The notes under the pieces were generated by a model. The model was not told the origin of the DNA, ran no database searches, and was given only the letters and a program-made list of their open reading frames with translations. 54,249 bases of DNA from an uncultured Candidatus Saccharibacteria bacterium. GTDB lineage: Bacteria > Patescibacteriota > Minisyncoccia > Phycocordibacterales > CAYGHQ01. Positions 1,232 through 39,980 of this stretch are shown one piece after another (position 1 is the first letter of the stretch; each line of letters begins with the position of its first letter). The stretch lies in NCBI GenBank assembly GCA_964349845.1, contig CAYGHQ010000001.1, positions 1 to 54,249 on the forward strand, in the 5' to 3' direction. Position numbers and translations under genes: made by a program.

Positions 1232-2431
1232 CTAGTCCCTAGTGGCTTCTTCTAGCGCCCCCCTCGTATATTTATTCGCCGCCGACCACATCATCCAGCT
1301 TGTCAGTCCTGCGTCATAAACAGCCTGCTTCTGTTTCCTAACCATATCCGCCGTATAGACGGCTCCCAAATTAAAATCCTGAAGCCACGGGCGGAGTTTC
1401 TCCGGAGTAGTGCTCGCTCTCTCGTAAGCGCTCTCCATGGAAATCTTGACAACCTCATAAGGATAAGCTGCGGGATTCTTAAATCCGTTCCAGTTGGCGG
1501 GATAATGAGACGGATAAACCATGGGAGAAACATAATCAAAATAAGGCAAAGCTTTTTCCAAAACCTGTCCAATATTAAGGTCATCCTTGTTGGTTGTGGT
1601 CATTCCAAAAAGATCAGCCGAGGTCTTGGCGCCGATTCCTTTCAATTCCCCGCTCAAGTAGTAAAAAAAATCTTCAAGAACTTCGTGCTTTTTCCGCCCT
1701 TCGCTTTTGGGATAGTAAATATCTTTCATGTTTCCATCCGAAGGAAATCTGATATAGTCAAAATTAAGCTCGTCAAAACCTATTTCTTCGTATGATTCTT
1801 TAGCCAGGGCCACAGTATAATCCCAAGCCTTTTTGGAACCGGCATCAATCCAGGAAATTCCCTTGTAATCTTTCCAGACGACATTTTTATCGCTCTCTTT
1901 TTTAACCGCCTCTTCAGGCCAAAACTTCACCAAAAATGGATCCTGGAAAACAGAGATTCTCCCTATGACATAAATATTTTTTTTATGAAGATAGTCAATA
2001 AATTCCCTCGCGTCGGGAAACCTCTTTGATCCGGCCCCGATTTCAACAAGCAAAGGATCGGATACCGGAAAAGCGATCATGCCCGTGTAATCTTTGATAT
2101 CTATCACCACGGCATTCAGTTCCGTTTCATCTATAAGTTTTACTATCCCTTCGCGCAATTTTTTTTCCCCTGCCACCCAGCTTGTCATATAGACCGCCTT
2201 CAAAGGCTCCGGAGTTTGAAGATGCGCGGGTACGAACTTCTTAATCTCTTCCGGCCCATCAGGAATAATGCCCGCTTCCAGCGCCGGCTCGTAAGTTACC
2301 GAAAAAATTTTTCCGTAAAAAAAGTAGAAAGAGATAAAAAGCAAAGCGGCAAAAACGCCAAAGAAAATTGGCGTTTTTGGTCCAATTTTTCTTTTCCCCG
2401 AGACTTTTTCAGGTTCTTGGAATAATTTCAT
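1232..2431 (-). CDS. Putative glycoside hydrolase (COG1306-like TIM-barrel family) with an N-terminal membrane anchor
   Basis: 399-aa ORF. It has an N-terminal hydrophobic helix (PIFFGVFAALLFISFYFFYG). Motifs NAVVIDIKD, FDELNFDYIRFP and SPMVYPSHY match the uncharacterised putative glycosyl hydrolase family as I recall it. Confidence 0.5.
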   Translation of the reverse strand: MKLFQEPEKVSGKRKIGPKTPIFFGVFAALLFISFYFFYGKIFSVTYEPALEAGIIPDGPEEIKKFVPAHLQTPEPLKAVYMTSWVAGEKKLREGIVKLIDETELNAVVIDIKDYTGMIAFPVSDPLLVEIGAGSKRFPDAREFIDYLHKKNIYVIGRISVFQDPFLVKFWPEEAVKKESDKNVVWKDYKGISWIDAGSKKAWDYTVALAKESYEEIGFDELNFDYIRFPSDGNMKDIYYPKSEGRKKHEVLEDFFYYLSGELKGIGAKTSADLFGMTTTNKDDLNIGQVLEKALPYFDYVSPMVYPSHYPANWNGFKNPAAYPYEVVKISMESAYERASTTPEKLRPWLQDFNLGAVYTADMVRKQKQAVYDAGLTSWMMWSAANKYTRGALEEATRD

Positions 2432-6298: not shown

Positions 6299-7201
6299 TT
6301 ATGTTTCCCTATTCCTCTCCATCTCTTTTCTGGAAAAATTCTCAAAGAGAGCGCTGTCTTCTTTGTGGAAAACAGCCACGTCATAGTAAGGAAAAGTTCT
6401 TCCGTATGATTTGCCCGGGGTATAATAATTGAGTTCGGAGATAAGTTTTTTGTCCGCCAAATCGGCCGACAAGAGAAACCTTCCATAATTATCGTAATAT
6501 ACGATTTTTTCATAACCAAGATTAAAAAGCGTTTCCATCGTGTCCAGCCCTTTTTCGCCCAAATGTTCAAATTCGCTTCTGGCGTACTCAAAGAAGATGA
6601 CCGGTTTAGCAGTCCGCAGATAATCTTTTCCGCCTCTTATTATTTTGAAATCAAATCCGTCGGCATCTATCTTGAGAAGCTTGGCATTCTTCCATTTTGG
6701 ATTTTCTTTCACGAACTTGTCCAGCGTGGAAATTTTTATTTTATTCTCCCCCGTTTTTTCGGAAAAAATTTTCATCGTGCCGTTTTCGTTTTTCATTTCC
6801 GCCGAAAAATCCCCCTCCTTGTCCCCTAAAAACATTTTAAACACGGACACGTTTTCGACGGCCAGGGCGTTCTTCTCCAAAAAAGAAAAAAATTTCTCGT
6901 CTCCGTCTATGGAAGCTATGGGAGAAGAAGGGCAGGACGATCTTATGAAAGACGAGGTGTCGCCCACGTTGCCCCCCACATCAATAACTTTCAAATCCGG
7001 ATATTTTTCATAAACGGCTTTGGAGAGCCGGACGATATTTTGGGCGTATTCGGGATGCTTTTTTAAAATAACGGGCAAGAGGTGTTCGCGGGGAAAGGAA
7101 AGGACGGTGTTTCCAATTTTCCAAGCCCGGGGCTTGTTTTTAAGAATAGTCCGGTCAAGAAAATTGCGGGCTTTGACGGCGATTCTAATTAGAATAGGCA
7201 T
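6299..7201 (-). CDS. FkbM-family SAM-dependent methyltransferase
   Basis: 300 aa. It has the VIDVGGNVGD glycine motif and LLKIDADGFDFKII, which is characteristic of the Methyltransf_21/FkbM family. TATAAT lies 6 nt upstream of the ATG. Confidence 0.7.
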   Translation of the reverse strand: MPILIRIAVKARNFLDRTILKNKPRAWKIGNTVLSFPREHLLPVILKKHPEYAQNIVRLSKAVYEKYPDLKVIDVGGNVGDTSSFIRSSCPSSPIASIDGDEKFFSFLEKNALAVENVSVFKMFLGDKEGDFSAEMKNENGTMKIFSEKTGENKIKISTLDKFVKENPKWKNAKLLKIDADGFDFKIIRGGKDYLRTAKPVIFFEYARSEFEHLGEKGLDTMETLFNLGYEKIVYYDNYGRFLLSADLADKKLISELNYYTPGKSYGRTFPYYDVAVFHKEDSALFENFSRKEMERNRET

Positions 7202-7261: not shown

Positions 7262-7289
7262 TTGACACTTATTGACACTTGGCTATAAT
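7262..7289 (+). promoter_or_regulatory. Consensus sigma70 promoter with a duplicated TTGACAC box
   Basis: TTGACA at 7262..7267, a 16-nt spacer, then TATAAT at 7284..7289. A second TTGACAC sits 10 nt downstream of the first, inside the spacer. The ATG at 7299 is only 9 nt after the -10. Confidence 0.7.
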
Positions 7290-7298
7290 ATACAATAT

Positions 7299-7544
7299 AT
7301 GGAAGAAATCAAGGTAAATTCAATCTATACAACTGACGAAACGAGAGAGATTCTCCGCGTAAGCCCGAGCACCATAAAACGCCTTTTAAAGAAGGGGCTT
7401 ATTCGCGCCAATAAAGTCGGAGGACAATATCGCATACTCGGGAAAGAGATACTGCGGCTGGTCTCTCCTCAAGCAGAGAAAAAGGCGGTAGAATCATACC
7501 AAGAATTAAAGAGGAAGATAGTTAGGAAGGTGAAGAATTGGTAA
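7299..7544 (+). CDS. Small helix-turn-helix DNA-binding protein (excisionase/MerR-like HTH_17 type)
   Basis: 81 aa from the ATG at 7299. TDETREILRVSPSTIKRLLKKGLIRANKVGGQYRI matches the excisionase-family HTH pattern. Confidence 0.6.
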   Translation: MEEIKVNSIYTTDETREILRVSPSTIKRLLKKGLIRANKVGGQYRILGKEILRLVSPQAEKKAVESYQELKRKIVRKVKNW

Positions 7545-7573
7545 GAAATCCAAAATCCAAATCATGAAAATTA

Positions 7574-7729
7574 AAAAAGCACAAAATTCTAAATACGAAA
7601 TCCGAAACAAATCCGGAAAATTCTAAATTCTAAATCCAAAACAAAAAATCTTTATCTTTGTTTTGGTTATTTATATTTTCTTTATTTGGCTTCGTTTGTT
7701 TCGAATTCCGGATTTCGTGCTTCGGATTT
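7574..7729. repeat. Family E intergenic palindromic element, copy 1
   Basis: The arms are built from CGAAATCCGAAACAAA words around a central CCAAAACAAA/TTTGTTTTGG hairpin. The right arm 7677..7729 is the reverse complement of 8565..8617 with one mismatch. Confidence 0.85.
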
Positions 7730-7737
7730 AAATTGTT

Positions 7738-8562
7738 ATGGCTGAAACTTTAAAAATCATCAAACCAAAAAAAGTGTGGAGCTTGGACGACATCCGGGAA
7801 ATCTGGCAATACCGCGAGCTCATGTTTTTTTTCGTCTGGAGAGATATTAAAGTCCGATACAAGCAGACGGTAATCGGCATTCTTTGGGCGATAATTCAGC
7901 CATTCATCACAATGGCCGTTTTCAGCGTCTTTTTTGGCAAGCTCGCGGGCATTCCCTCGGACGGAATCCCCTATCCTATCTTTGTTTACGTAGGATTATT
8001 GTTCTGGCAATTTTTTTCCGGCTCGCTTGGAGAAACCGCAAATACCTTGATTGGAAACGCCTCCATCATCACTAAAGTTTATTTCCCACGGCTTATCCTT
8101 CCGATAGCCGATACGGCAACCAAGCTCGTGGATATGTTCTTTGCCAGCATTATTTTAGTCGGCCTTATGTTCTATTACGGATACACCCCTCACCTCGTTG
8201 GAATTCTTCTTATCCCCATACTTCTTTTTATATCATTTTTAATCGCAGTGGGAGGCGGATTAATCTTGGCTTCCGTCAATGTCAAATACCGAGACATTCG
8301 CTACGCCCTCCCCTTCTTTCTCCAAATTCTCCTTTTTTTGACGCCGGTTATTTATCCCGGAAGCATCGCCGGAAAATATTCGTGGCTTATGGCTCTTAAT
8401 CCGATGACAGGGGTAATCAAAGCGGCCAGAAACGGCATTTTGGGAGTAGCGCCGGTAAATTGGCTCCTGCTTTTCCTTTCCTTCCTCGGAGCGCTTCTGG
8501 TTTTTGCCATAGGAGTGATTGTCTTTAAGAAAACAGAGCGGTACTTTGCCGACATCGTATAA
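7738..8562 (+). CDS. wzm: ABC-2 type polysaccharide/teichoic-acid export permease
   Basis: 274 aa with six hydrophobic segments. The N-terminal signature is YRELMFFFVWRDIKVRYKQTVIGILWAIIQPF. It lies adjacent to the Wzt/TagH-like ATPase. Confidence 0.85.
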   Translation: MAETLKIIKPKKVWSLDDIREIWQYRELMFFFVWRDIKVRYKQTVIGILWAIIQPFITMAVFSVFFGKLAGIPSDGIPYPIFVYVGLLFWQFFSGSLGETANTLIGNASIITKVYFPRLILPIADTATKLVDMFFASIILVGLMFYYGYTPHLVGILLIPILLFISFLIAVGGGLILASVNVKYRDIRYALPFFLQILLFLTPVIYPGSIAGKYSWLMALNPMTGVIKAARNGILGVAPVNWLLLFLSFLGALLVFAIGVIVFKKTERYFADIV

Positions 8563-8564
8563 AT

Positions 8565-8729
8565 AAATCCGAAGCACGAAATCCGAAATTCGAAACAAAC
8601 GAAGCCAAATAAAGAAAGACCAAATAATCCAAAGCAAAAAACCAACAGAAAAACATTCTTCGTTTTGGATTTTGAATTTTCTACATTTTCTGGATTTGTT
8701 TCGGATTTCGAATTTCGGATTTCGTGCTT
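8565..8729. repeat. Family E intergenic palindromic element, copy 2
   Basis: The left arm AAATCCGAAGCACGAAATCCGAAATTCGAAACAAACGAAGCCAAATAAAGAAA pairs imperfectly with the right arm 8688..8729. Confidence 0.85.
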
Positions 8730-8780
8730 AATTAAATTTTCTTAGAATTCAGATTTTTTTAAATAAATTTAATTAATTGT

Positions 8781-10049
8781 ATGTCTAACTCAATCATAGA
8801 AATCAAAGGCGTCAGCAAGCGCTACAATATCACCCACGAACACGGGAAATATATCGCCCTCAGGGACATTCTGGCGAACATTCTCCGGAATCCTTTTAAA
8901 TATATTTGGACAAAAACCAGAAAAGCCGTAGGCAGAGATAGCGTGGAAAAATTCTGGGCGCTTCGCGACATAAACCTTACAGTTGAAAAAGGAGAAGTAA
9001 TCGGCATTATAGGAAGCAACGGCGCCGGCAAATCCACTCTCCTCAAAATTTTGACAGGCATCACTCCGCCCACCGAAGGGGAAGTTATTATGCGGGGGAA
9101 AGTTGCCTCTCTTCTTGAAGTAGGCACCGGATTTCATCCAGAACTTACTGGCCGAGAAAATATTTTTTTAAACGGCGCGATCCTCGGAATGACTAGGAAA
9201 GAGATCGCCCAGAAATTTGACAAAATTGTTGAATTCTCCGGAGTGGAGAAATTTATAGACACGCCCGTCAAAAAGTATTCTTCCGGAATGTATGTCCGTC
9301 TGGCTTTTTCCGTGGCCGCCCATATGGAACCGGACATTCTTCTTGTTGACGAAGTTCTGGCCGTAGGCGACGCCGAATTCCAAAAAAAATGCCTCGGCAA
9401 AATGGACGAAGTGACAAAGGGAGCGGGCCGGACTATTCTTTTCGTTTCCCACAACATAGCGGCCATCCAAAGAATATGCAACAAGACTGTTTTGCTGGAT
9501 AAAGGAAAGATGGTAATGTTCGGCCCCACGAACGAGGTCATAGAACGCTACCTCTCCGGAAATCGGGAGAATAGCGGGGAAACGCTTTTTAATACTGATC
9601 CGAAAAAAGACGCGGAAGTTACCGAAATATCTTTTGAAAACGAGAAGGGAGAAAAATCGGGAACATTCCTATCAAACGAGGCTTGGAAAATAAAAATCAA
9701 ATATACCGTCAAGAAAAAAGCTCCCAAAACTATGGTAACTCTTGAATTCTACTCAAATACAGGCACGATGTTTTTTATGACCACCGACAGCGATAAAGAG
9801 AAAGATCTTTTGGATAAGCCAGCCGGAGAATATGAAGCTGTTCTCTCTGTTCCGAGAAACATGCTCAATCCGGGAAGTTATACGCTCCGCGTTACCATCC
9901 AGTCGCCATATCAGAAAGTCTATGAGGGAGTGGAAGGCTTACAGGTCTCTATCCAGTCCTCGGGAGAAAATATCCGGGACAGCTATTTCCGCGGAAAATA
10001 TTACGGCTTTCTGGCGATGGAGATGGAGTGGCAAACTAAAAAACTATGA
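8781..10049 (+). CDS. wzt: Polysaccharide ABC exporter ATP-binding protein with a C-terminal extension (Wzt_C-like)
   Basis: 422 aa. It has Walker A GSNGAGKST, the signature YSSGM, and Walker B ILLVDE. About 170 further residues form a beta-rich C-terminal domain, as in Wzt proteins that recognise the glycan terminus. Confidence 0.85.
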   Translation: MSNSIIEIKGVSKRYNITHEHGKYIALRDILANILRNPFKYIWTKTRKAVGRDSVEKFWALRDINLTVEKGEVIGIIGSNGAGKSTLLKILTGITPPTEGEVIMRGKVASLLEVGTGFHPELTGRENIFLNGAILGMTRKEIAQKFDKIVEFSGVEKFIDTPVKKYSSGMYVRLAFSVAAHMEPDILLVDEVLAVGDAEFQKKCLGKMDEVTKGAGRTILFVSHNIAAIQRICNKTVLLDKGKMVMFGPTNEVIERYLSGNRENSGETLFNTDPKKDAEVTEISFENEKGEKSGTFLSNEAWKIKIKYTVKKKAPKTMVTLEFYSNTGTMFFMTTDSDKEKDLLDKPAGEYEAVLSVPRNMLNPGSYTLRVTIQSPYQKVYEGVEGLQVSIQSSGENIRDSYFRGKYYGFLAMEMEWQTKKL

Positions 10050-11263
10050 GGATAGCTATCATTCTCTCGGGCATAGCGGGAAAATCCGGAACAGAGAGGC
10101 AGGCTCTGTCGCTAGCCAGCGCGCTTAAAAGAGAAGGGCATCATGTTGATTTATTCTGTTACTGGCACTCTCCGGATAAATGCTACACGGAGCTTGTCAA
10201 AGGGTTTGATGTTCATTACGTAAAACTTCTCAAGGAAGAAAAACGCGCGGAAAAACCCGCCGGCCGAAAGTTCTTGCCCGAAAAAATCCGCTACTTCGGG
10301 AGAATATATTTTCCGCTTATCAAAAAAATTCTTTTCACGGAAAAGCCTTTGAAAGAGCTCAAAGAGCTTATGGAAAAAACCAATCCCCTTTCCTTTTATG
10401 ATGTCCTTAACCTGCACGAATACGAGATATGCGGAATTGCCCGGATTTTGAGGCACCCGAATATAGTCTGCATGCTAAATGACGCCGGACACACCATCTC
10501 GCGGGGGAAACATCCCATTCATAATTTTTTCTACAATATTCTCCAAAGAATTTACAACCGGCTCATCTTCCGAAACATAAAAAAAATTACCGTTCTCAAC
10601 GAAGGAAGCGTGAAAATCTGCCAAGAATCATACGGCCTGACTCCGACAGTAGTCCGAAGCGGAATTGATATTCAGATTTTCAAAGATTTTCCCGCCACAA
10701 GAGAATTTCCACCGAAGACTCTTAAAATCTTCGCTTCCGGCATTTTTTCTCCGCATCGCCGTTTTGAAGATTTGGCGGACGCCATAGAAATCGTCCGAGA
10801 TAAAGGAGTGAAAAATATTGAAGCGGAAATAAATGGAAAGCACGATAGACATCACGAATATTATCTTTTTATCCAAGAGAGAATCCGGCAAAAAAAACTG
10901 GATGGGTATATAAAAATTACAAGCGGTATGTCGGAGGAAGAGCTTCGCCGGAAAATCAGAGATAGCCATATTTTTGTTTTTCCGAATATAAATCAGACGT
11001 GGGGACTTGCCGTTTTTGAAGCGATGCTCGGAGGGTGCGTCCCCATCGTAAATCGGGAAGCGGGAGCAAGCGAAATTCTTACCGATAATAAAAACGCGCT
11101 TCTTGTCAATCCCCTATCGCCCCGTGAAATTGCCGATAAAATCATTTACTTGGCGGAAAATCCGCAAGTCCTCCAAAAAATCTCCGAGGAAGCCCCGAAA
11201 TTCGTAAAAGAAAATCTGTCGTGGGAAAAATACGCGGAAGCAATGCTTAAAGCGTTTAAGTAG
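10046..11263 (+). CDS. Glycosyltransferase family 4 (GT-B, GT1/GT4 type)
   Basis: 405 aa. The C-terminal EX7E-type region is FPNINQTWGLAVFEAMLGGCVPIV. The start overlaps the wzt stop (ATGA). Confidence 0.7.
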   Translation: MRIAIILSGIAGKSGTERQALSLASALKREGHHVDLFCYWHSPDKCYTELVKGFDVHYVKLLKEEKRAEKPAGRKFLPEKIRYFGRIYFPLIKKILFTEKPLKELKELMEKTNPLSFYDVLNLHEYEICGIARILRHPNIVCMLNDAGHTISRGKHPIHNFFYNILQRIYNRLIFRNIKKITVLNEGSVKICQESYGLTPTVVRSGIDIQIFKDFPATREFPPKTLKIFASGIFSPHRRFEDLADAIEIVRDKGVKNIEAEINGKHDRHHEYYLFIQERIRQKKLDGYIKITSGMSEEELRRKIRDSHIFVFPNINQTWGLAVFEAMLGGCVPIVNREAGASEILTDNKNALLVNPLSPREIADKIIYLAENPQVLQKISEEAPKFVKENLSWEKYAEAMLKAFK

Positions 11264-11265
11264 AT

Positions 11266-11527
11266 AAACATACCAATATACAAATAAATCCCTCCCCCGT
11301 AAGAACGGGTACTCCTTACAGGAGCAGTCCACTCTTTCGCTCTCGCCGACTCGAGCTGAAAGAGTCTTGCGAAGCTCCTTAAGGTCGCTTCTCACCCTTT
11401 AAGAAAGGGAGATTTAAATCCTCCTTTATTAAAGGAGGCCCGCCCGAACCGTCCGAAGCGTCCGCTTCGGTACGGGCGGGTGGCCGGTACTCCGGACGGA
11501 GGATTTTATTTGTATATTGGTATGTTT
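11266..11527. repeat. Family F multi-hairpin element, copy 1
   Basis: 30-nt terminal inverted repeats (11266..11295 and 11498..11527, 28/30 complementary) enclose a chain of short GC-rich hairpins. These include CCTCCTTTATTAAAGGAGG (11420..11438) and CCCGCCCGAACCGTCCGAAGCGTCCGCTTCGGTACGGGCGGG (11439..11480). Confidence 0.9.
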
Positions 11528-11557
11528 AATTACTCATAATATTGGTATGTTAACCTC

Positions 11558-12649: not shown

Positions 12650-13790
12650 AAAAAATAAAACAACCCGGAATAATAAGAAAAAACCGCCGACAAAAACGGG
12701 AAAAAGAAAAACTCCCGCCAAAAAAACCAAAAAAGTTTTGGTTACGGGCTCGGCGGGACTTATCGGATCGGAATCGGTCAGATTTTTCGCCAATCTAGGT
12801 TTTGATATTATCGGAATTGACAACAATATGCGGGAGTATTTTTTCGGCAAAGAAGCCAGCACGGACTGGAACAGAGAACTTCTAGAGAAAAATCATAAAA
12901 ATTATATCCACCGGAACGCGGATATCCGCGACAATGAAGTTATTGAGGAAATTTTCCGGAACAATAAATTTGACCTCATTATCCACACGGCAGCCCAGCC
13001 CTCGCACGATTGGGCAGTAAAGGAGCCATTCACTGATTTCGAAGTAAACGCGCTGGGCACTCATATCCTTCTTGAGAATTTCCGGAAATACTCCCCGGAG
13101 GCAGTTTTCATTTTTACTTCCACGAACAAAGTCTACGGAGATAGGCCCAACACTCTGCCCCTCATTGAAAAAGAGACAAGATATGAATTGCCGGAAGAAC
13201 ACAGATACTGGAAAGGGATTGACGAGAGCATGAGCATTGACGACTCCAAACACAGCATTTTCGGAGCGTCCAAAGTCGCCGCAGATATAATGGTTCAAGA
13301 GTATGGAAAATACTTCGGCCTCCGCGCGGCTATTTTCCGAGGGGGATGCTTGACAGGTCCGGCTCACAGCGGAGCGGAACTTCACGGATTTCTGGCATAT
13401 CTTATCAAATGCGTAGCCACCGGAAAAAAATACACGATTTTCGGGTACAAAGGAAAACAAGTGAGAGACAACATCCACTCGCGCGACCTTGTCAGAGCTT
13501 TCCATCATTTTTATTTGAAACCTCGCCACGGAGAAGCGTATAATATGGGTGGCGGGAGAAACTCAAATGTCTCAATTTTGGAGGCCATAGATAAAATTGA
13601 AAAAATCTTGGGGAAAAAAGCGGTTCTTGAATACAAAGAAACCAACAGAATAGGAGATCATATTTGGTACATTTCCGACGTCTCCAAATTCAAAACGCAC
13701 TATCCGGAATGGGATTTTGAGTATAATATAGACGACATCATAAAAGAAATTTGCCAGAGATGGAAAGATAATGGAAACCGCCAACCTTAA
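12639..13790 (+). CDS. NAD-dependent sugar epimerase (CDP-paratose 2-epimerase-like extended SDR) with a lysine-rich N-terminal tail
   Basis: It has the Rossmann motif [13 protein letters not shown] and the catalytic motif [11 protein letters not shown] (YxxxK-like region). [12 protein letters not shown] is typical of the CDP-paratose epimerase group as I recall it. The first ATG at 12639 adds about 33 K/T/N-rich residues, and there is no in-frame alternative start before the Rossmann strand. Confidence 0.7.
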
Positions 13791-14544
13791 AAAAATAATA
13801 GTTGAAACGGCAACAGAATCCCATGAAGGGCATATTCCTTCCGCTTTTTCCATTTTGGATATTTTATGGGTTCTTTACGATAAAATTTTAAAAATTGATC
13901 CAAAAAATCCAAAAGACGAAAATCGGGACAGATTTATTTTAAGCAAAGGGCACGGATCGCTAGGACTTTACGCGGTTCTCGCGGAAAAAGGGTTTTTTCC
14001 TCGAGAAGAGCTTTTAGAGTTCGGGAAATTTGATTCCATTTTGGGGGGACATCCGGACAGAAACAAGGTTCCGGGAGTGGAAGCGTCCACCGGATCTTTA
14101 GGGCACGGCTTGCCCATGGCAATCGGCATGGCTCTCGGTTTAAAAATGAAAAAAAACGGGGCAAGGGTTTTTGTCATTGCCGGAGACGGAGAGATGAACG
14201 AAGGAAGTATGTGGGAATCCCTCCTTTTGGCAAGCCATCATAAGCTTAACAATCTGTACTGCATAGTTGATTACAACCATTCCACCGACCGCGCTCTTTT
14301 GATCGGAGATCTGGAGAAAAAATTTGAAGCGTTCGGATGGGAAACAAAAACGATTGACGGGCATAATCGCGAAGAAATTGAAAAAGCTCTTTCCGAAAAA
14401 AACTCGGAAAAGCCGATAGCTATTATCGCAAACACCATAAAAGGACACGGGATCAAAATGATGGAGAATAATCCGGAGTGGCATCATAAGACGCCCAAGG
14501 AGGAAGAAATGAGAGAAATTTTAGAGCAACTGAAAACTGTATAG
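13771..14544 (+). CDS. Transketolase, N-terminal (ThDP-binding) subunit
   Basis: 257 aa. [33 protein letters not shown] and [12 protein letters not shown] are transketolase PP-domain motifs. Confidence 0.85.
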
Positions 14545-14568
14545 TTAATGCTGGTATTATTGCAATTT

Positions 14569-14718
14569 TAAAATCCGAAGCACGAAATCCGAAATCCGAA
14601 ACAAAGCCCAAAAATAAAGAAAATTAAAAATTCCAAACAAATTCGGTTACATTTTGAAAATTAGAATTTTGAATTTGCCTTCGTTTGTTTCGGATTTCGT
14701 GCTTCGGATTTCGAATTT
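14569..14718. repeat. Family E intergenic palindromic element, copy 3
   Basis: AAAATCCGAAGCACGAAATCCGAAATCCGAAACAAAGCCC pairs with GCCTTCGTTTGTTTCGGATTTCGTGCTTCGGATTTCGAATTT. It sits between the two transketolase subunit genes. Confidence 0.85.
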
Positions 14719-14728
14719 ACAAAATAAA

Positions 14729-15607
14729 ATGCGCAAACAATTCCCCAAAACAATAGAAAATTTGATGGAAAAAGACAATCGCCTTGTCGTTCTTTTGGGC
14801 GACATCGGCGTTTTTAGTTTCCAAAACGTTTTTTCCCGTTTCCCCGACCGAATTTATAATATCGGCATTTTGGAACAATCTACAATAGGAATGGCATCGG
14901 GACTTGCTATGGAAGGGTTTATTCCCATAGTCCATACCATCGCTCCGTTCTTGGTTGAAAGAGCCTATGAGCAATTAAAAGACGATTTCGGCTATCAGAA
15001 ACTTTCGGGAAAATTCGTAAGCGCCGGAGCATCCTATGACTACTCGGCCTTGGGTTCTACTCACCACTGCCCCGCCGATGTTCCTGTCCTAAAGCAAATT
15101 CCTGAAATGGAAATTGTTTTGCCCGGAACGGGAGAAGAGTTTGATTCCCTTTTTAAAGAAACTTACGCGAACGGACACCCGACTTATTTCCGCTTGAGCG
15201 AAAATAAAAATGACGCAAGCTTCCCTGTCGCTTTTGGAAAAGCAAATGTCGTAAAGCAAGGCAAAAAAGCAACAGTCATTGCCGTAGGGCCGATGCTCAA
15301 AAATGTTTTAACCGCCTGCAAGGACGAAGATGTAACAATTTTGTATTACACGACCGTAAGCCCATTTGACAAAGAGACTCTCCATGAAAATTTTGTCGGA
15401 GACAAAGTGATATTATGCGAGCCGTATTACAGCGGAGCTCTAGCTTTTGACGTTGCAAGCGCCTTGTCAGATAAAAAAGTTGAAACGCATTTTATCGGAG
15501 TTCCTTTGGAATTCTTGCGAAATTACGGAAAAGCTGAAGATCAAGATAATTTTTTGGGCTTGACAGAAGAAGCTATTGGGATAAAAATCAGAAAAATTTC
15601 AATATAA
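14729..15607 (+). CDS. Transketolase, C-terminal (pyrimidine-binding) subunit
   Basis: I chose the ATG at 14729 (MRKQFPKTIENL...); the longer track ORF begins inside the repeat. GILEQSTIGMASGLAMEGFIPIVHT is the Transket_pyr motif. Confidence 0.85.
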   Translation: MRKQFPKTIENLMEKDNRLVVLLGDIGVFSFQNVFSRFPDRIYNIGILEQSTIGMASGLAMEGFIPIVHTIAPFLVERAYEQLKDDFGYQKLSGKFVSAGASYDYSALGSTHHCPADVPVLKQIPEMEIVLPGTGEEFDSLFKETYANGHPTYFRLSENKNDASFPVAFGKANVVKQGKKATVIAVGPMLKNVLTACKDEDVTILYYTTVSPFDKETLHENFVGDKVILCEPYYSGALAFDVASALSDKKVETHFIGVPLEFLRNYGKAEDQDNFLGLTEEAIGIKIRKISI

Positions 15608-19732: not shown

Positions 19733-19940
19733 TGTACCCCATAAAGTGGACATCTAATAAATGCCCACTTTTTCTTTTGTTAAGATTAATAGTAATTAAA
19801 CAAATACCATGAGAAATCACATATTTAGCGGGGATGAGATCGAAAAGTTAAAGAAGAGTCCGTTTGTTCGAAAGTTTACCAACAAATCAATCACATACAC
19901 TCCCGAGTTCAAAAAACTGGCGATTAAACAGCACAACCAA
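19733..19940 (+). pseudogene. Remnant of an IS3-family element: terminal inverted repeat plus the first ~44 codons of orfA
   Basis: The TG-initiated end TGTACCCCATAAAGTGGACA resembles IS3-family IRs. The ORF from 19809 (MRNHIFSGDEIEKLKKSPFVRKFTNKSITYTPEFKKLAIKQHN) resembles the N-terminus of IS3/IS150-type HTH orfA proteins. It then runs into the REP array. Confidence 0.45.
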
Positions 19941-20099
19941 TGCGGAAATGGCGGAAATGGGGACAGCCAGAAATGGGGACCCAGAAATGCCCAGAAATGG
20001 AAATGGTGGAAATGGGGACAGCCACCATTTTTTACCTTTTCGTGTGTGGTGGAAATGGTGGAAATGGGGACAGCCACCATTTTTTACCTTTTCGTGTGT
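19939..20099. repeat. REP-like hairpin array (left flank of the RAYT gene)
   Basis: Two exact 45-nt copies of ATGGTGGAAATGGGGACAGCCACCATTTTTTACCTTTTCGTGTGT lie at 20003..20047 and 20055..20099. Each contains the hairpin AAATGGTGG(12 nt)CCACCATTT. Degenerate GAAATGGGGAC units precede them. Confidence 0.85.
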
Positions 20100-20108
20100 C
20101 ATAATAAT

Positions 20109-20780
20109 TTATAGTTTTTTAGGTCGGCCGGGAAAACGCAAGGTTGATTCAAGGTGATAGGCTGTCACCATTTGATTAACCCATTTTTCTCCCCCGTATG
20201 GTATTCCTTTTGTGACCGAAGCGCGAATAAATTCAAGATCTTCAGGGTTATCCGGTGTATTGACCCATTTAATATAATTGCCAGGAAAAGGTGTTAGGGA
20301 AGGATCAAGCAGTTTCCTTTCTTCTTTTGTCCCATTGATTCTTCGCCAAGCGCTTCCCCACTGCCAGCTTTCGCATTTGTCTGTTATTTTTGCTCTGACA
20401 GGATTGCGTTCCACATACTTTATCAAAGAAAGCAAATAACTATCGGTTTCAACCAAAAAAGACTTGTATCTGCCCTGATAAAGATGACCTGTGCCATTTG
20501 TGTTTGTTAAAGCATGCACTTTGCGAGTGTGGGAGTTAGACAAGCGGTGCATAAAAGTTCCAAGATCTCCGTCTTGTTTCGGATACAAAACAAGGTGCCA
20601 ATGATTTGGCATAATCACATAAGCAAGTATTCTCATATCAACCAATTCTTTAGTTTCAAGCAAAAGTGTTTCAATAATCCGATAGTCCTTCTCAGTATTA
20701 AAAATCTTATACCGCCCATTGGCGCGATTAATGACGTGATAAACCTTATCTCCAATATCAACTCTTGTGTTACGAGGCAT
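20109..20780 (-). CDS. REP-associated tyrosine transposase-like (IS200/IS605-type Y1 HUH transposase, COG1943)
   Basis: 223 aa. The HUH motif is present as NHWHLVL, and GHLYQGRYKSFLVETDSYLLSLIKYVERNPVRA contains the catalytic Tyr region. The gene is flanked by inverted copies of the GGGGACAGCCACC hairpin. Confidence 0.8.
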   Translation of the reverse strand: MPRNTRVDIGDKVYHVINRANGRYKIFNTEKDYRIIETLLLETKELVDMRILAYVIMPNHWHLVLYPKQDGDLGTFMHRLSNSHTRKVHALTNTNGTGHLYQGRYKSFLVETDSYLLSLIKYVERNPVRAKITDKCESWQWGSAWRRINGTKEERKLLDPSLTPFPGNYIKWVNTPDNPEDLEFIRASVTKGIPYGGEKWVNQMVTAYHLESTLRFPGRPKKL

Positions 20781-20954
20781 AGTTAAAATATTATATCATA
20801 CTTTTTGTTAAACAATGGTGGCTGTCCCCATTTGTCCACCATTAATGACGTGATAGACCTTATCTCCAATATCAACTCTTGCGTTACGAGGCATGGTGAA
20901 AATATTATATCATACTTTTTGTTAAACAATGGTGGCTGTCCCCATTTGTCTCCC
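20727..20954. repeat. 114-bp tandem duplication covering the RAYT 5' end, its upstream region and a REP
   Basis: 20727..20840 and 20841..20954 align with only a few substitutions. Each copy contains AATGGTGGCTGTCCCCATTT, the reverse complement of the left-flank REP core. Confidence 0.9.
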
Positions 20955-20962
20955 CATTTGTC

Positions 20963-21331
20963 TTGGTTGGAGTAAGTAGCCTTGATTTCCGAAAGAAGGT
21001 AAGGATATTTTTCATGGGGGGCATTTGGAATACTTAAGCGGGGCTTGGGATAAACGGCTTCGAGACCCATCTTCCGCATTAGTCTTCGGATATGGTGGCG
21101 GCCAATGGAGATTCCTCTACTCTCTAGTTCCGGTTTCATTCTTCTTGATCCGTAGAAAGGGTAAGCGGTGTAAACTTCGTCAATGGCGTTCATGGCTCTA
21201 ATGTCTTCCGGGGAAATGATCGGTTTGTAGTAAAAACTCTCGCGGGAGACGCCTAAAAGGGCGCTTTGGCGGGAGAGGGATATTTCTTTATGGGAAGGAA
21301 CGATCAATGATCTTTTTTCCTCATGATTCAA
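20963..21331 (-). pseudogene. IS3-family orfB fragment (HTH_21 region only, no rve/DDE domain)
   Basis: Only about 123 transposase-like residues remain. The rest of the track ORF (DKWGDKWGQPPLFNKKYDIIF...) is a translated REP/duplication sequence. Confidence 0.75.
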
Positions 21332-21657
21332 CTTGCAATTTTTTTTTGAGCCACTCGAGTTCTATCTCGCGTTTGCCAATCGTCCTGTATAACCTTTCAA
21401 TGAGATCGTCCCTGTCCCGATTCTCCTTTTTTCTCTTATCGGTAAAAAGAGAGCCGGCTCCTTCTTCCACGGTCTTTCTCCATTGCCCGACTACGTTCGG
21501 GTGGACTTCGTTTAGAGAACCAATTTCGTTTAAAGTTTTCTCTCCTTTGAGAGCCAGAAGAGCGATTCTTCCTTTTTGCTCGGGGGTGAATATTTTTTTC
21601 ATAGATTTGCGGTTAAGTCAAAATTATACCTCAAAATCCACTAAATATACCTGTGCA
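20963..21657 (-). mobile_element. Truncated IS3-family insertion sequence: IR, orfA and the N-terminal third of orfB; the integrase core is missing
   Basis: orfA at 21321..21602 (MKKIFTPEQKGRIALLALKGEKTLNEIG..., HTH_Tnp_1-like). orfB' runs from about 21331 (LSRQSALLGVSRESFYYKP...YGSRRMKPELESRGISIGRHHIRRLMRKMGL...YPYLL) and stops being transposase-like after SNQ near 20963. The TG-initiated end is TGCACAGGTATATTTAGTGGA (21657 downward). Confidence 0.75.
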
Positions 21658-22765
21658 GATTTATGGGACCAGTATAGGCTGTAATTTTCTTCTCGATTTT
21701 AGACAAAAGATCGTAAAGGTAAATATCCCAATCTTCCCCGCTTTTTCCTTCTCCGTAAATTAATTTGCCGTCTTCCGAAACCGCCGGATTGGTTTGATTG
21801 CCTCCATGACTTGGAATAGAAAGAGGAGTTTTAGTTTTAATGTTATATGCGTAAGCTTTCCAAACCCCTTCTTTGACGCTCATCCAAGAGAGATAATCCC
21901 CAGCCATATTTAACCCGGAAATATCTTTTCCTTCCGCTATCTTCTCTTTGGTTTTGCCAAGAAGATCGTAGATAAATAGAGTCCGATTGTTTCGGCTTAA
22001 AACCTCCACATAAGCCACTTTATCGCCAAAAATAACGGGCTCCGATTGAGATTTTGAGCTCAAAGAAAGAGGGCTTTCTTTACCGGTAGAAAGATTGAAA
22101 AGATAAACCAGTACCGAATCTTTTCCAGGATTTTCCGGATTAGCGCTCCGATTAAGATAAACTATTTTATTTCCGTAAATTGAAGGGCGAAATTCATCTC
22201 CACTGCCCGATGTCAATTGACGCTCTTTTTTGGCAGTTAGATCATAAAGATAAATATCGTAATTTCCATTCCTCTTGTCTTGCCAGACAATTTTATCTTC
22301 GGAAACTTTAGGATAGCTTCGACTGGCCAGAACAGAAGTTATTCGGACTTCGCCTTCCGGAGAAGACCCCGTGGGAGGCTCTATTTTAGAAAGATAATTT
22401 CCGACCACCCATCCGCTTTGTCCTCCATCATAATCAATCTTAAACCAAGTCAAACCATCTGACCGAACAGGGCCTTCCTCCACAAACCCCTGAGAGCCGG
22501 ATTTTTCTATGCTTAAAGGAGCTTTTAGAAAATTAGAAAATTCATAGAGCTTAATTTTATCCAAAGCAAAAACTCTTCCCCCCAAAAGGAAGTCTAAATA
22601 AAAAGGAGTGGATGTGGCTCCCTCTCCCAAACCTCTCATAAGAGAAGTGGGGGTGGAGGTAGAAGAATTCGTCTCCGCATTTCCGTAATCACTAGGAAAG
22701 AAACCGAGACCGATAAGGAGGATAAAACACAAAAACGCGACAAAAATAGAACGTTTGCCAGACAT
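21641..22765 (-). CDS. Secreted protein with an SH3b-like segment and TolB/PD40-like beta-propeller repeats
   Basis: 374 aa. It has an N-terminal signal/anchor (IFVAFLCFILLIGLGFF). The GWVVGNYL segment is SH3b-like. Repeated blades contain (D/N)GNYDIYLYDL and DWDIYLYDL. The last ~9 codons lie inside the IS3 terminal repeat. Confidence 0.5.
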   Translation of the reverse strand: MSGKRSIFVAFLCFILLIGLGFFPSDYGNAETNSSTSTPTSLMRGLGEGATSTPFYLDFLLGGRVFALDKIKLYEFSNFLKAPLSIEKSGSQGFVEEGPVRSDGLTWFKIDYDGGQSGWVVGNYLSKIEPPTGSSPEGEVRITSVLASRSYPKVSEDKIVWQDKRNGNYDIYLYDLTAKKERQLTSGSGDEFRPSIYGNKIVYLNRSANPENPGKDSVLVYLFNLSTGKESPLSLSSKSQSEPVIFGDKVAYVEVLSRNNRTLFIYDLLGKTKEKIAEGKDISGLNMAGDYLSWMSVKEGVWKAYAYNIKTKTPLSIPSHGGNQTNPAVSEDGKLIYGEGKSGEDWDIYLYDLLSKIEKKITAYTGPINLHRYI

Positions 22766-27326: not shown

Positions 27327-27510
27327 GTGAAATAAGCCATAAGAATGGCGAAATATAATCATCAGAATAATTGAAATTAGCTCGAAGACTCGCGAAAATT
27401 TCGCGAATCTAATTTCTATTTATTTCGGCTTCGTAAATTTCGTGAGGTCTTCCGAACTTATTTCATTCTTATGTATTTCGGCTTCGTAAATTTCGCGAAT
27501 CCCGATTAGC
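27327..27510. repeat. Intergenic imperfect palindrome with an internal 25-nt direct repeat
   Basis: The arms GTGAAATAAGCCATAAGAATGGCGAAATA and CGAACTTATTTCATTCTTATGTATTTCG pair. TATTTCGGCTTCGTAAATTTCG(T/C)GA occurs at 27421..27445 and 27474..27498. It lies in the presumed 5' UTR of the neuB-fusion gene. Confidence 0.75.
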
Positions 27511-37608: not shown

Positions 37609-37876
37609 TTTCCAATATCCAATTTCCAATGAAATTAATAAAATCCTCAGGCGGAATACCGCCACCTCCTTTATTAAAGGAGGAATTAATTCTCCCTTTT
37701 TTAAAGGGAGCCCGCCCGAACCGTCCGAAGCGGACGCTTCGGTACGGGCGGGTACCCGTCTTCGGAGGGAGGGATTTAAGAAATTTCCGGCATTTCATTG
37801 TCCTTCAAATTCTTCAGGATGGTGAGCCTGTTGAATCCAGAAATTGGTAATTGAAAATTGGAAATTTTAATTCAAT
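37601..37876. repeat. Family F multi-hairpin element, copy 2
   Basis: The outer arms are built from CCAATTTCCAAT / ATTGGAAATT words. The core contains CCTCCTTTATTAAAGGAGG (37665..37683), CTCCCTTTTTTAAAGGGAG (37692..37710) and CCCGCCCGAACCGTCCGAAGCGGACGCTTCGGTACGGGCGGG (37711..37752). Confidence 0.9.
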
Positions 37877-38977: not shown

Positions 38978-39817
38978 ATGGTAATTGTAAAACTACAAGG
39001 AGGTCTCGGAAATCAGATGTTTCAATATGCCGCCGGAAGAGCGGCTTCTTTGCGCGTTGAAACAGAACTCAAGCTGGATGTGAGTTCGTTTCAGGAATAC
39101 AAGCTCCGGAAGTATTCTCTCCAAAATTTCAAGATAAAAGCGGATTTCGCTTTATCGGAAGAGACCAGAGAAGCCAAGGGAAATTTTTTAAAAAATCTCG
39201 TCTCCCCTTCGTGGATTAAGGAAGAGCCTTTTTCTCCGTGGAATTCTAAACTGCTTTCTCTTAAAGACAACGCCTATCTTGACGGCTACTGGCAAAGTGA
39301 AAAATATTTCAAAGATAAAGAGGAAAATATCCGGCAGGAATTTTCTCTTAAAAAACCTTTTCAAGCGGAAGCCGGAAAAATTTCCGCCCAGATGGAGGCC
39401 ACGGAAAATCCCGTTTCCATCCATGTTCGCCGAGGGGATTACGTTTCCAAAAAGCATTTAAATGAAATCTTCGGAGTATGCCATCCGGAATATTACGAGA
39501 AAGCGGTGGCTTTCGTAGCTGGAAAAACAAGCCATCCTGTTTTTTTCATATTTTCAGATGATATCGCGTGGGTCAAGGAGAATTTAAAAATTCAATTCCC
39601 CGCCGTTTTCGTTTCTAAATCAGAAATAGAGGATTTTGAAGAGCTTGCTCTTATGAGTGAGTGTAGACACAATATCATAGCCAATTCCACGTTCAGCTGG
39701 TGGGGAGCGTGGCTTAACAGGAATCCTGAAAAAATCGTTATTGCTCCCAAAAAGTGGTTTAATCATCCTTCTTTGAACACAAAGGACTTGATACCAGAAG
39801 GGTGGGTAAAGATTTAA
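38978..39817 (+). CDS. Glycosyltransferase family 11 (alpha-1,2-fucosyltransferase)
   Basis: 279 aa with GGLGNQMFQYAAGRA, HVRRGDYV and NSTFSWWGAWL. Confidence 0.85.
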   Translation: MVIVKLQGGLGNQMFQYAAGRAASLRVETELKLDVSSFQEYKLRKYSLQNFKIKADFALSEETREAKGNFLKNLVSPSWIKEEPFSPWNSKLLSLKDNAYLDGYWQSEKYFKDKEENIRQEFSLKKPFQAEAGKISAQMEATENPVSIHVRRGDYVSKKHLNEIFGVCHPEYYEKAVAFVAGKTSHPVFFIFSDDIAWVKENLKIQFPAVFVSKSEIEDFEELALMSECRHNIIANSTFSWWGAWLNRNPEKIVIAPKKWFNHPSLNTKDLIPEGWVKI

Positions 39818-39972
39818 ATTCGAAGCACGAAATCCGAAATTCGAAACAAACGAAGCCAAATAGAGTCAAAATTCAAATATCTAAACGGGATTTTTATGTG
39901 TCCTTGTTTAGAATTTGAGATTTTCTTCTATTTCGGGTTTTGTTTCGGATTTCGTGCTTCGAATTTCGGATT
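39815..39972. repeat. Family E intergenic palindromic element, copy 4
   Basis: AAATTCGAAGCACGAAATCCGAAATTCGAAACAAACGAAGCCAAATAGAG pairs with TTCTATTTCGGGTTTTGTTTCGGATTTCGTGCTTCGAATTTCGGATTT. Confidence 0.85.
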
Positions 39973-39980
39973 TAATAAAT

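Follow-up and report, generated by a model that had tools for sequence, protein, structure and literature searches.

Two oppositely oriented copies of a dispersed hairpin repeat bracket the wzm permease gene of an uncultured Saccharibacteria bacterium

The Correia elements (NEMIS) of Neisseria and the enterobacterial repetitive intergenic consensus (ERIC) sequences of enterobacteria are non-coding imperfect palindromes of 100-160 nt that lie between genes and are often co-transcribed with them, and their RNA forms long hairpins that can be processed or can alter mRNA stability. Repetitive extragenic palindromic (REP) sequences are 20-40 nt long and carry a GTAG or CGTC tag; REP sequences and bacterial interspersed mosaic elements (BIMEs) are extragenic palindromes at gene 3' ends or between cistrons, form genome-specific subfamilies and can occur as inverted pairs (PMC3733652). 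Here we describe a family of hairpin repeats in a contig from an uncultured Candidatus Saccharibacteria bacterium (GenBank assembly GCA_964349845.1, contig CAYGHQ010000001.1, positions 1 to 54,249; this whole stretch of 54,249 nt is called the window), in which two copies bracket wzm, the permease gene of a glycan-export operon. A first-pass annotation of the window had proposed that the bracket might act as an inversion switch or as a dedicated RNA cassette. From the sequence comparisons reported below we favor, with a probability of roughly 0.7, two incidental and oppositely oriented insertions of a dispersed repeat, similar to REP sequences or miniature inverted-repeat transposable elements (MITEs), into the short spacers beside wzm; the inverted repeat is then most likely a by-product of how the two copies are arranged, not a purpose-built switch.

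When compared directly, positions 7677-7729 and the reverse complement of 8565-8617 are identical at 52 of 53 positions, the sole mismatch being C7708 versus A8586, and the left arm ends 8 nt 5' of the wzm ATG while the right arm starts 2 nt 3' of its TAA stop codon, exactly as annotated in the first pass. Without gaps, the inverted repeat reaches 70 nt at 90% identity (7661-7730/8564-8633). The arms had been described as the proximal halves of two palindromic elements, and both elements (E1 and E2) are indeed long imperfect hairpins; their local alignment scores 192 in inverted versus 82 in direct orientation, showing that they are inverted copies over their whole length and that wzm is truly flanked by long inverted repeats. 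The bracket is really an inverted repeat of ~175 nt, and what had been noticed before was its best-preserved part. For a 17-mer from this repeat, 13 near-matches occur in the window where 0.5 would be expected, because the arms around wzm belong to a repeat family, whose four copies (E1-E4) are listed here with the genes around the bracket.

7299-7544, forward strand: HTH_17, gene for a small DNA-binding protein of the excisionase family (Pfam), at the head of the operon
7545-7731, reverse strand: E1, imperfect hairpin repeat of ~187 nt, in the orientation opposite to E2-E4, filling the spacer from the HTH_17 stop codon to wzm
7677-7729, reverse strand: left arm of the bracket, the conserved half of E1, adjoining the 5' end of wzm
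7738-8562, forward strand: wzm, ABC-2 type permease of 274 aa (PF01061, ABC-2 membrane)
8563-8740, forward strand: E2, hairpin repeat of ~178 nt between wzm and wzt, where relatives have a 4-nt spacer
8565-8617, forward strand: right arm of the bracket, the conserved half of E2, adjoining the 3' end of wzm
8781-10049, forward strand: wzt, ABC ATPase with a glycan-binding domain (ABC_tran and Wzt_C), parted from wzm by E2
14559-14724, forward strand: E3, hairpin repeat between the split transketolase genes 13771-14544 and 14729-15607
39810-39976, forward strand: E4, hairpin repeat overlapping the stop codon of a GT11 gene (38978-39817)

The window copies are 165-190 nt long with ~27% GC and AT-rich stems. 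Their predicted folding energies are -41.7 kcal/mol for E1 (z = -3.95), -57.3 kcal/mol for E2 (z = -7.7), -49.2 kcal/mol for E3 (z = -6.7) and -69.4 kcal/mol for E4 (z = -9.5); the core stem of E2 comprises 24 perfect base pairs (8572-8595/8706-8729), and the half of E1 distal to wzm is degenerate. The arms of all four are arrays of 7-nt units (GAAATCC, GAAATTC, GAAGCAC, GAAACAA and their complements), and the copies differ in how many units they have and in which order. A profile of the A-rich arm, searched against the window, matched the eight arms of E1-E4, with one overlapping weak match in E2 and one marginal match at 27451-27481 (E = 0.44) in addition. One half of the element, 51 nt long, is strongly conserved (98% identity between E1 and E2, 96% between E2 and E4, and 94% between E1 and E4), while the rest is just 58-71% identical. 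E4 lies 31 kb from the wzm pair and has no inverted partner. Since the 51-nt half is kept equally well in this partnerless copy, the near-identity of the wzm arms is a property of the subfamily and no evidence for upkeep of their complementarity. Arms are complementary at 0.68 within an element and at 0.59 between elements, a modest difference from which we make no claim of compensatory evolution. E3 parts the gene for the N-terminal transketolase subunit from that for the C-terminal subunit, so that, after wzm and wzt, it splits a second obligately co-expressed pair.

The comparison with relatives covered five wzm loci looked up one by one and 80 further metagenomic wzm loci (62-75% identity, 351 kb). 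In the five relatives, wzm begins 12-24 nt after a co-oriented upstream gene and the next gene follows within 4-18 nt, the downstream junction being TAA-NNNN-ATG in four of them; among the 80 metagenomic loci the median downstream spacer is 8.5 nt. The gene directly after wzm is wzt in four of the five and a radical SAM gene in the other (L130), HTH_17 heads the operon in three (L120, L128 and L130, all without the repeats), and a Wzy_C-TPR gene lies upstream on the opposite strand in two (L120 and L131). No hairpin element was found at the wzm loci of the five relatives, and the arm-profile search of the 80 metagenomic loci returned zero matches. Identity to the syntenic relatives is 72-76% for Wzm, 68-70% for HTH_17 (L120 and L128 compared) and 50-54% for Wzt, or 69% over a partial alignment of the latter. 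Because all three proteins match the same syntenic relatives, wzm occupies its ancestral operon position. E1 and E2, in turn, were added in this lineage, to spacers of originally a few nucleotides. The first-pass annotation had suggested asking whether orthologous loci keep the bracket and had reasoned that its absence there would make the arrangement unremarkable; it is absent from every locus compared, and by that reasoning unremarkable.

How does this family compare with the described ones? It is like the Correia and ERIC elements in size, in folding into hairpins, in lying between genes and within operons, and in being multi-copy. It differs from them in having no sequence similarity to them, no recognizable TA duplication and no defined termini, in its arms, which are arrays of 7-nt units of variable number and order, and in the distribution of these units across many phyla and not within one genus or family. 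As with REP and BIME, the copies are extragenic palindromes at gene 3' ends or between cistrons; identity with REP was nevertheless rejected, the elements being 80-190 nt long, untagged and ending in TAAATYCGAAGCACG. We also rejected identity with REP or BIME sequences associated with REP-associated tyrosine transposases (RAYTs): at the Y1 gene of the window (20109-20780) the flanking repeats are GGGGACAGCCACC hairpins and not the wzm-flanking family, and tblastn located RAYT-like genes in two of the 119 family loci listed, neither adjoining an element. The family shares with MITEs its short non-coding form, terminal inverted repeats, four dispersed copies in 54 kb, and presence or absence at orthologous sites (the five relatives and 80 metagenomic loci), and lacks their target-site duplication and precise termini. 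Integron attC sites, whose core sites follow R''(RYYYAAC)...R'(GTTRRRY), were set aside because the element ends do not fit this consensus and the genes form a syntenic glycan operon, not cassettes. Overall, the family behaves much like Correia, ERIC and REP elements, without the hallmarks of REP and with only part of those of MITEs.

The family extends far beyond this contig. At least 119 stretches of a species-representative genome collection contain the exact arm 18-mer GAAGCACGAAATCCGAAA, against ~17 by our own estimate under uniform composition. Its hosts include Planctomycetota, Desulfobacterota, many Patescibacteria, Omnitrophota, Chloroflexota, Verrucomicrobiota and others, the loci range from 33 to 71% GC, and in nearly all of them the 18-mer is bordered by 7-nt units in a common pattern; six viral contigs (L132-L137) carry the hairpin family as well. 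In adjacent arm pairs of other genomes, the A-rich arm lies 5' of the T-rich arm in 40 cases versus 1, and the outer ends of the elements are ragged, with a variable number of 7-nt units. The element starts at a median of 8.5 nt after the upstream stop codon in 38 tandem-gene contexts, with no preference among TAA, TAG and TGA, copies usually sit in short spacers, and a few lie between divergent genes; these context counts are approximate, as genes were called by longest open reading frame, which is unreliable in GC-rich loci (the 'divergent' L052 proved tandem). Some copies in GC-rich genomes, where the center is often a GC-rich stem flanked by GAAACAAA and TTTGTTTC, look terminator-like. Single genes enclosed by two copies recur among the at least 119 loci, in direct orientation in L055, L046 and marginally L021 (score 110 versus 102) and in inverted orientation in L067; the regions concerned in these Planctomycetota genomes are 3216-4550 of L055, 4759-6118 of L021 and 1830-2890 of L067.

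Searches for an existing description gave little. No Rfam 15 family reached the gathering score, whether the query was the window or 15 other loci holding typical copies, and the plant miRNA hairpin models that surfaced below threshold in a permissive Rfam search were dismissed as generic long-hairpin similarity. A full-text literature search with 13-15-mers of the repeat yielded nothing relevant, a keyword search yielded only a survey of REP sequences (PMC3733652), and no plasmid or phage record matched E4 by BLAST.

The operon in which E1 and E2 reside appears to start at a single promoter, listed here with the tail that follows E2.

7262-7289, forward strand: sigma-70-type promoter, TTGACA-16-TATAAT, with 12 of 12 consensus matches, ending 9 nt before the HTH_17 ATG
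8741-8780, forward strand: AT-rich tail from E2 to the wzt ATG, with a small inverted repeat (8728-8747/8757-8776)

This promoter is the likely start of a transcript running through E1, wzm, E2 and wzt. The consensus promoter scan detected no promoter-like site downstream of E1 or E2, including 8741-8780, and with a single promoter upstream and none after either element, HTH_17, E1, wzm, E2 and wzt are probably on one transcript. Shine-Dalgarno motifs are nearly absent from the genes across the window, and several operon-first genes have a TATAAT 6-9 nt before their ATG (7262-7298 and upstream of the reverse-strand genes 6299-7201 and 21641-22765); this combination suggests that leaderless mRNAs are used in this organism. 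The 218-nt structured spacer that stands in place of the 4-nt wzm-wzt junction probably changes how translation of wzt starts. The insertions have one concrete consequence: they break the 4-nt junction that most of the five relatives have, in an organism that appears to use nearly no Shine-Dalgarno motifs.

The sequence of events that we favor would run as follows. Two separate non-coding hairpin copies would have settled, in opposite orientations, in both short spacers beside wzm; the operon would be transcribed from the 7262-7289 promoter through E1 and E2, and each element would fold locally into an intercistronic stem-loop that is probably read through. These stem-loops would break the tight wzm-wzt coupling of the relatives and, in the manner of REP, ERIC and Correia elements, may influence how stable the mRNA is or how it is processed, or may reduce read-through. 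With ~40-55 intergenic gaps in the window, two of four copies would land in adjacent gaps with a probability of about 0.23 (range 0.21-0.28), and with about half of that as an inverted pair.

Several observations weigh against incidental insertion. Over the full length, neither E1 nor E2 has a closer relative than the other, which fits local copying and also homogenisation between them, and the comparison with relatives spans Wzm identities of 76% and below, the best non-self Wzm homologue in the databases being 76% identical. Folding the elements with their flanks revealed neither a target-site duplication nor defined termini, although the folds tended to over-extend, and no arm pairs 0.5-4 kb apart enclosing a transposase were present among the 119 loci listed, at 8 kb sampled per locus. 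With no duplication, termini or autonomous partner found, the mobility of the family is putative and judged only from presence/absence and copy number. Furthermore, both the minimum-free-energy and the centroid folds of 7540-8745 pair E1 with E2, their cofold reaching -174.3 kcal/mol versus -98.2 for the local hairpins of both elements and the duplex of the proximal arms reaching -100.7 kcal/mol by itself, so that a long-range E1:E2 duplex is a possibility that is thermodynamically favored in silico. From this follows the main rival explanation, in which the T-rich 3' half of E1 and the A-rich 5' half of E2, and then the whole elements, would pair on the polycistronic mRNA and loop out wzm, with RNase III cutting the stem or the stem stabilising the RNA, which would make the Wzm level independent of HTH_17 and Wzt. 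The weakness of the E1 hairpin, whose distal arm has decayed, and the single upstream promoter, which makes co-transcription plausible, agree with such pairing. We still consider it unlikely: there is no sign of selection for pairing, the paired half being conserved to the same degree in E4; the arrangement is absent from all relatives examined; flanking pairs in other genomes are more often direct than inverted; co-transcriptional folding favors local hairpins; and the window shows no RNase III gene. The stems around 16S and 23S rRNA that RNase III cleaves in processing offer a parallel in their predicted long-range pairing 5' and 3' of a gene, but they are conserved across taxa, whereas the E1:E2 pairing is lineage-specific and made of two repeat copies. 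Each element could instead act as a bidirectional terminator or insulator that leaves wzm monocistronic between two terminators, as the position of the family shortly after stop codons, its fixed polarity (A-rich arm, center, T-rich arm) and the GC-rich central stems directly flanked by GAAACAAA and TTTGTTTC that are often seen in GC-rich genomes might imply. For the window copies, however, this is quite improbable: their stems are AT-rich and no U-tract follows them, a terminator scan flags just one 6-bp sub-hairpin, in E1, and E2 and E3 split gene pairs that need co-expression with no promoter-like site downstream, which together make efficient termination unlikely; moreover, Pfam-confirmed divergent-gene contexts exist (L079 and L082). 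A strict intrinsic terminator was rejected on the same grounds, the window copies lacking the GC-rich stem and U-tract and the location not being solely downstream of genes. A broader proposal, which we regard as doubtful, is that the copies form one coherent cross-phylum family that spreads horizontally as a functional module at gene 3' ends or between cistrons (a terminator, insulator or RNA-processing site served by a conserved factor) and is not merely selfish DNA, the pair at wzm additionally looping out the permease cistron.

At the DNA level, the first-pass annotation had raised the possibility that recombination across the inverted arms of 53-70 bp flips wzm relative to the operon promoter and switches glycan export on and off. 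Near-perfect inverted repeats at a distance of 833 bp could serve homologous recombination, and inverted repeats around a segment of a surface-glycan locus are also a feature of the known invertible switches (Hin/Gin, fimS and the capsule promoter invertons of Bacteroides). Those switches, however, are operated by their own site-specific recombinase and as a rule turn a promoter around, whereas the segment here is a whole promoter-less open reading frame between repeats of a dispersed family. No serine or tyrosine recombinase lies within ~10 kb of the bracket, and Pfam scans of the flanking genes and the main open reading frames of the window to 51.9 kb found no serine invertase or tyrosine recombinase; the transposase-type genes of the window are only a Y1 transposase and an IS3 remnant, ~12 kb off, each with its own unrelated repeats. 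The excisionase-fold HTH_17 gene beside E1 is present in relatives without the repeats too, the bracket is not conserved in relatives, and only one orientation has been seen (two contigs carry this Wzm, of which one is shown and the other listed as similar). A switch therefore seems very unlikely, and of the earlier interpretation the structural description stands, while its functional proposals, switch and evolved cassette alike, find no support: no recombinase lies nearby, the arm half is shared beyond the wzm pair, the bracket is absent from the relatives examined, and single genes elsewhere are enclosed by two copies more often in direct than in inverted orientation. The mRNA duplex keeps its thermodynamic plausibility. 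The E1-wzm-E2 geometry, with terminal inverted repeats of ~175 nt, could also be read as a composite transposon in which wzm was imported or is movable as a unit. This we hold to be most improbable of all, as wzm is placed as in relatives, directly upstream of wzt in an HTH_17-headed glycan operon, the identity of Wzm to its relatives equals or exceeds that of the neighboring gene products, the GC content of wzm is that of the neighboring genes, and no transposase is known for the hairpin family.

Incidental insertion, as the preferred reading, carries a caution: genomes colonised by palindromes readily yield long inverted repeats around single genes, and a switch should not be called without evidence on orientation or RNA ends. 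Of the two, the repeat family may be more important than the bracket: hairpins with the same 7-nt units closely follow stop codons in very distant phyla, and the searches found no curated description of them. If a function or an unusually broad horizontal spread were to prove true, the family would offer a way into the biology of transcript ends in uncultured bacteria.

The window holds other structured elements. The Y1 transposase (IS200-like, 223 aa, PF01797; 20109-20780 on the reverse strand, region 19809-21331) scores 69.9 bits against the NCBIfam model for REP-associated tyrosine transposases, under the 80-bit cut-off. Around its gene, which appears to lie inside an IS3-family transposase remnant, stand a TGGTGGAAATGGGGACAGCCACCA hairpin in inverted copies and a direct duplication of 110 nt (20727-20836/20841-20950). 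'TIRYT/TIRtron' elements have GGGGWSAS terminal repeats, and the GGGGACAG repeats at the Y1 gene, unrelated to the wzm-flanking family, fit this motif (PMC3733652). A second family of structured intergenic inserts is found at 11259-11534 (276 nt) and 37650-37790, both upstream of glycan-synthesis genes; the former folds to ~-140 kcal/mol (305-nt segment folded) with a 37-nt closing inverted repeat and GC-rich internal hairpins, and shares a 91-nt module with 37668-37758 at 84% identity; this second family has no Rfam match. Finally, a perfect palindrome of 74 nt (1136-1209), composed of 37-nt arms with no spacer, lies downstream of a DUF4015 gene (1232-2431, reverse strand).

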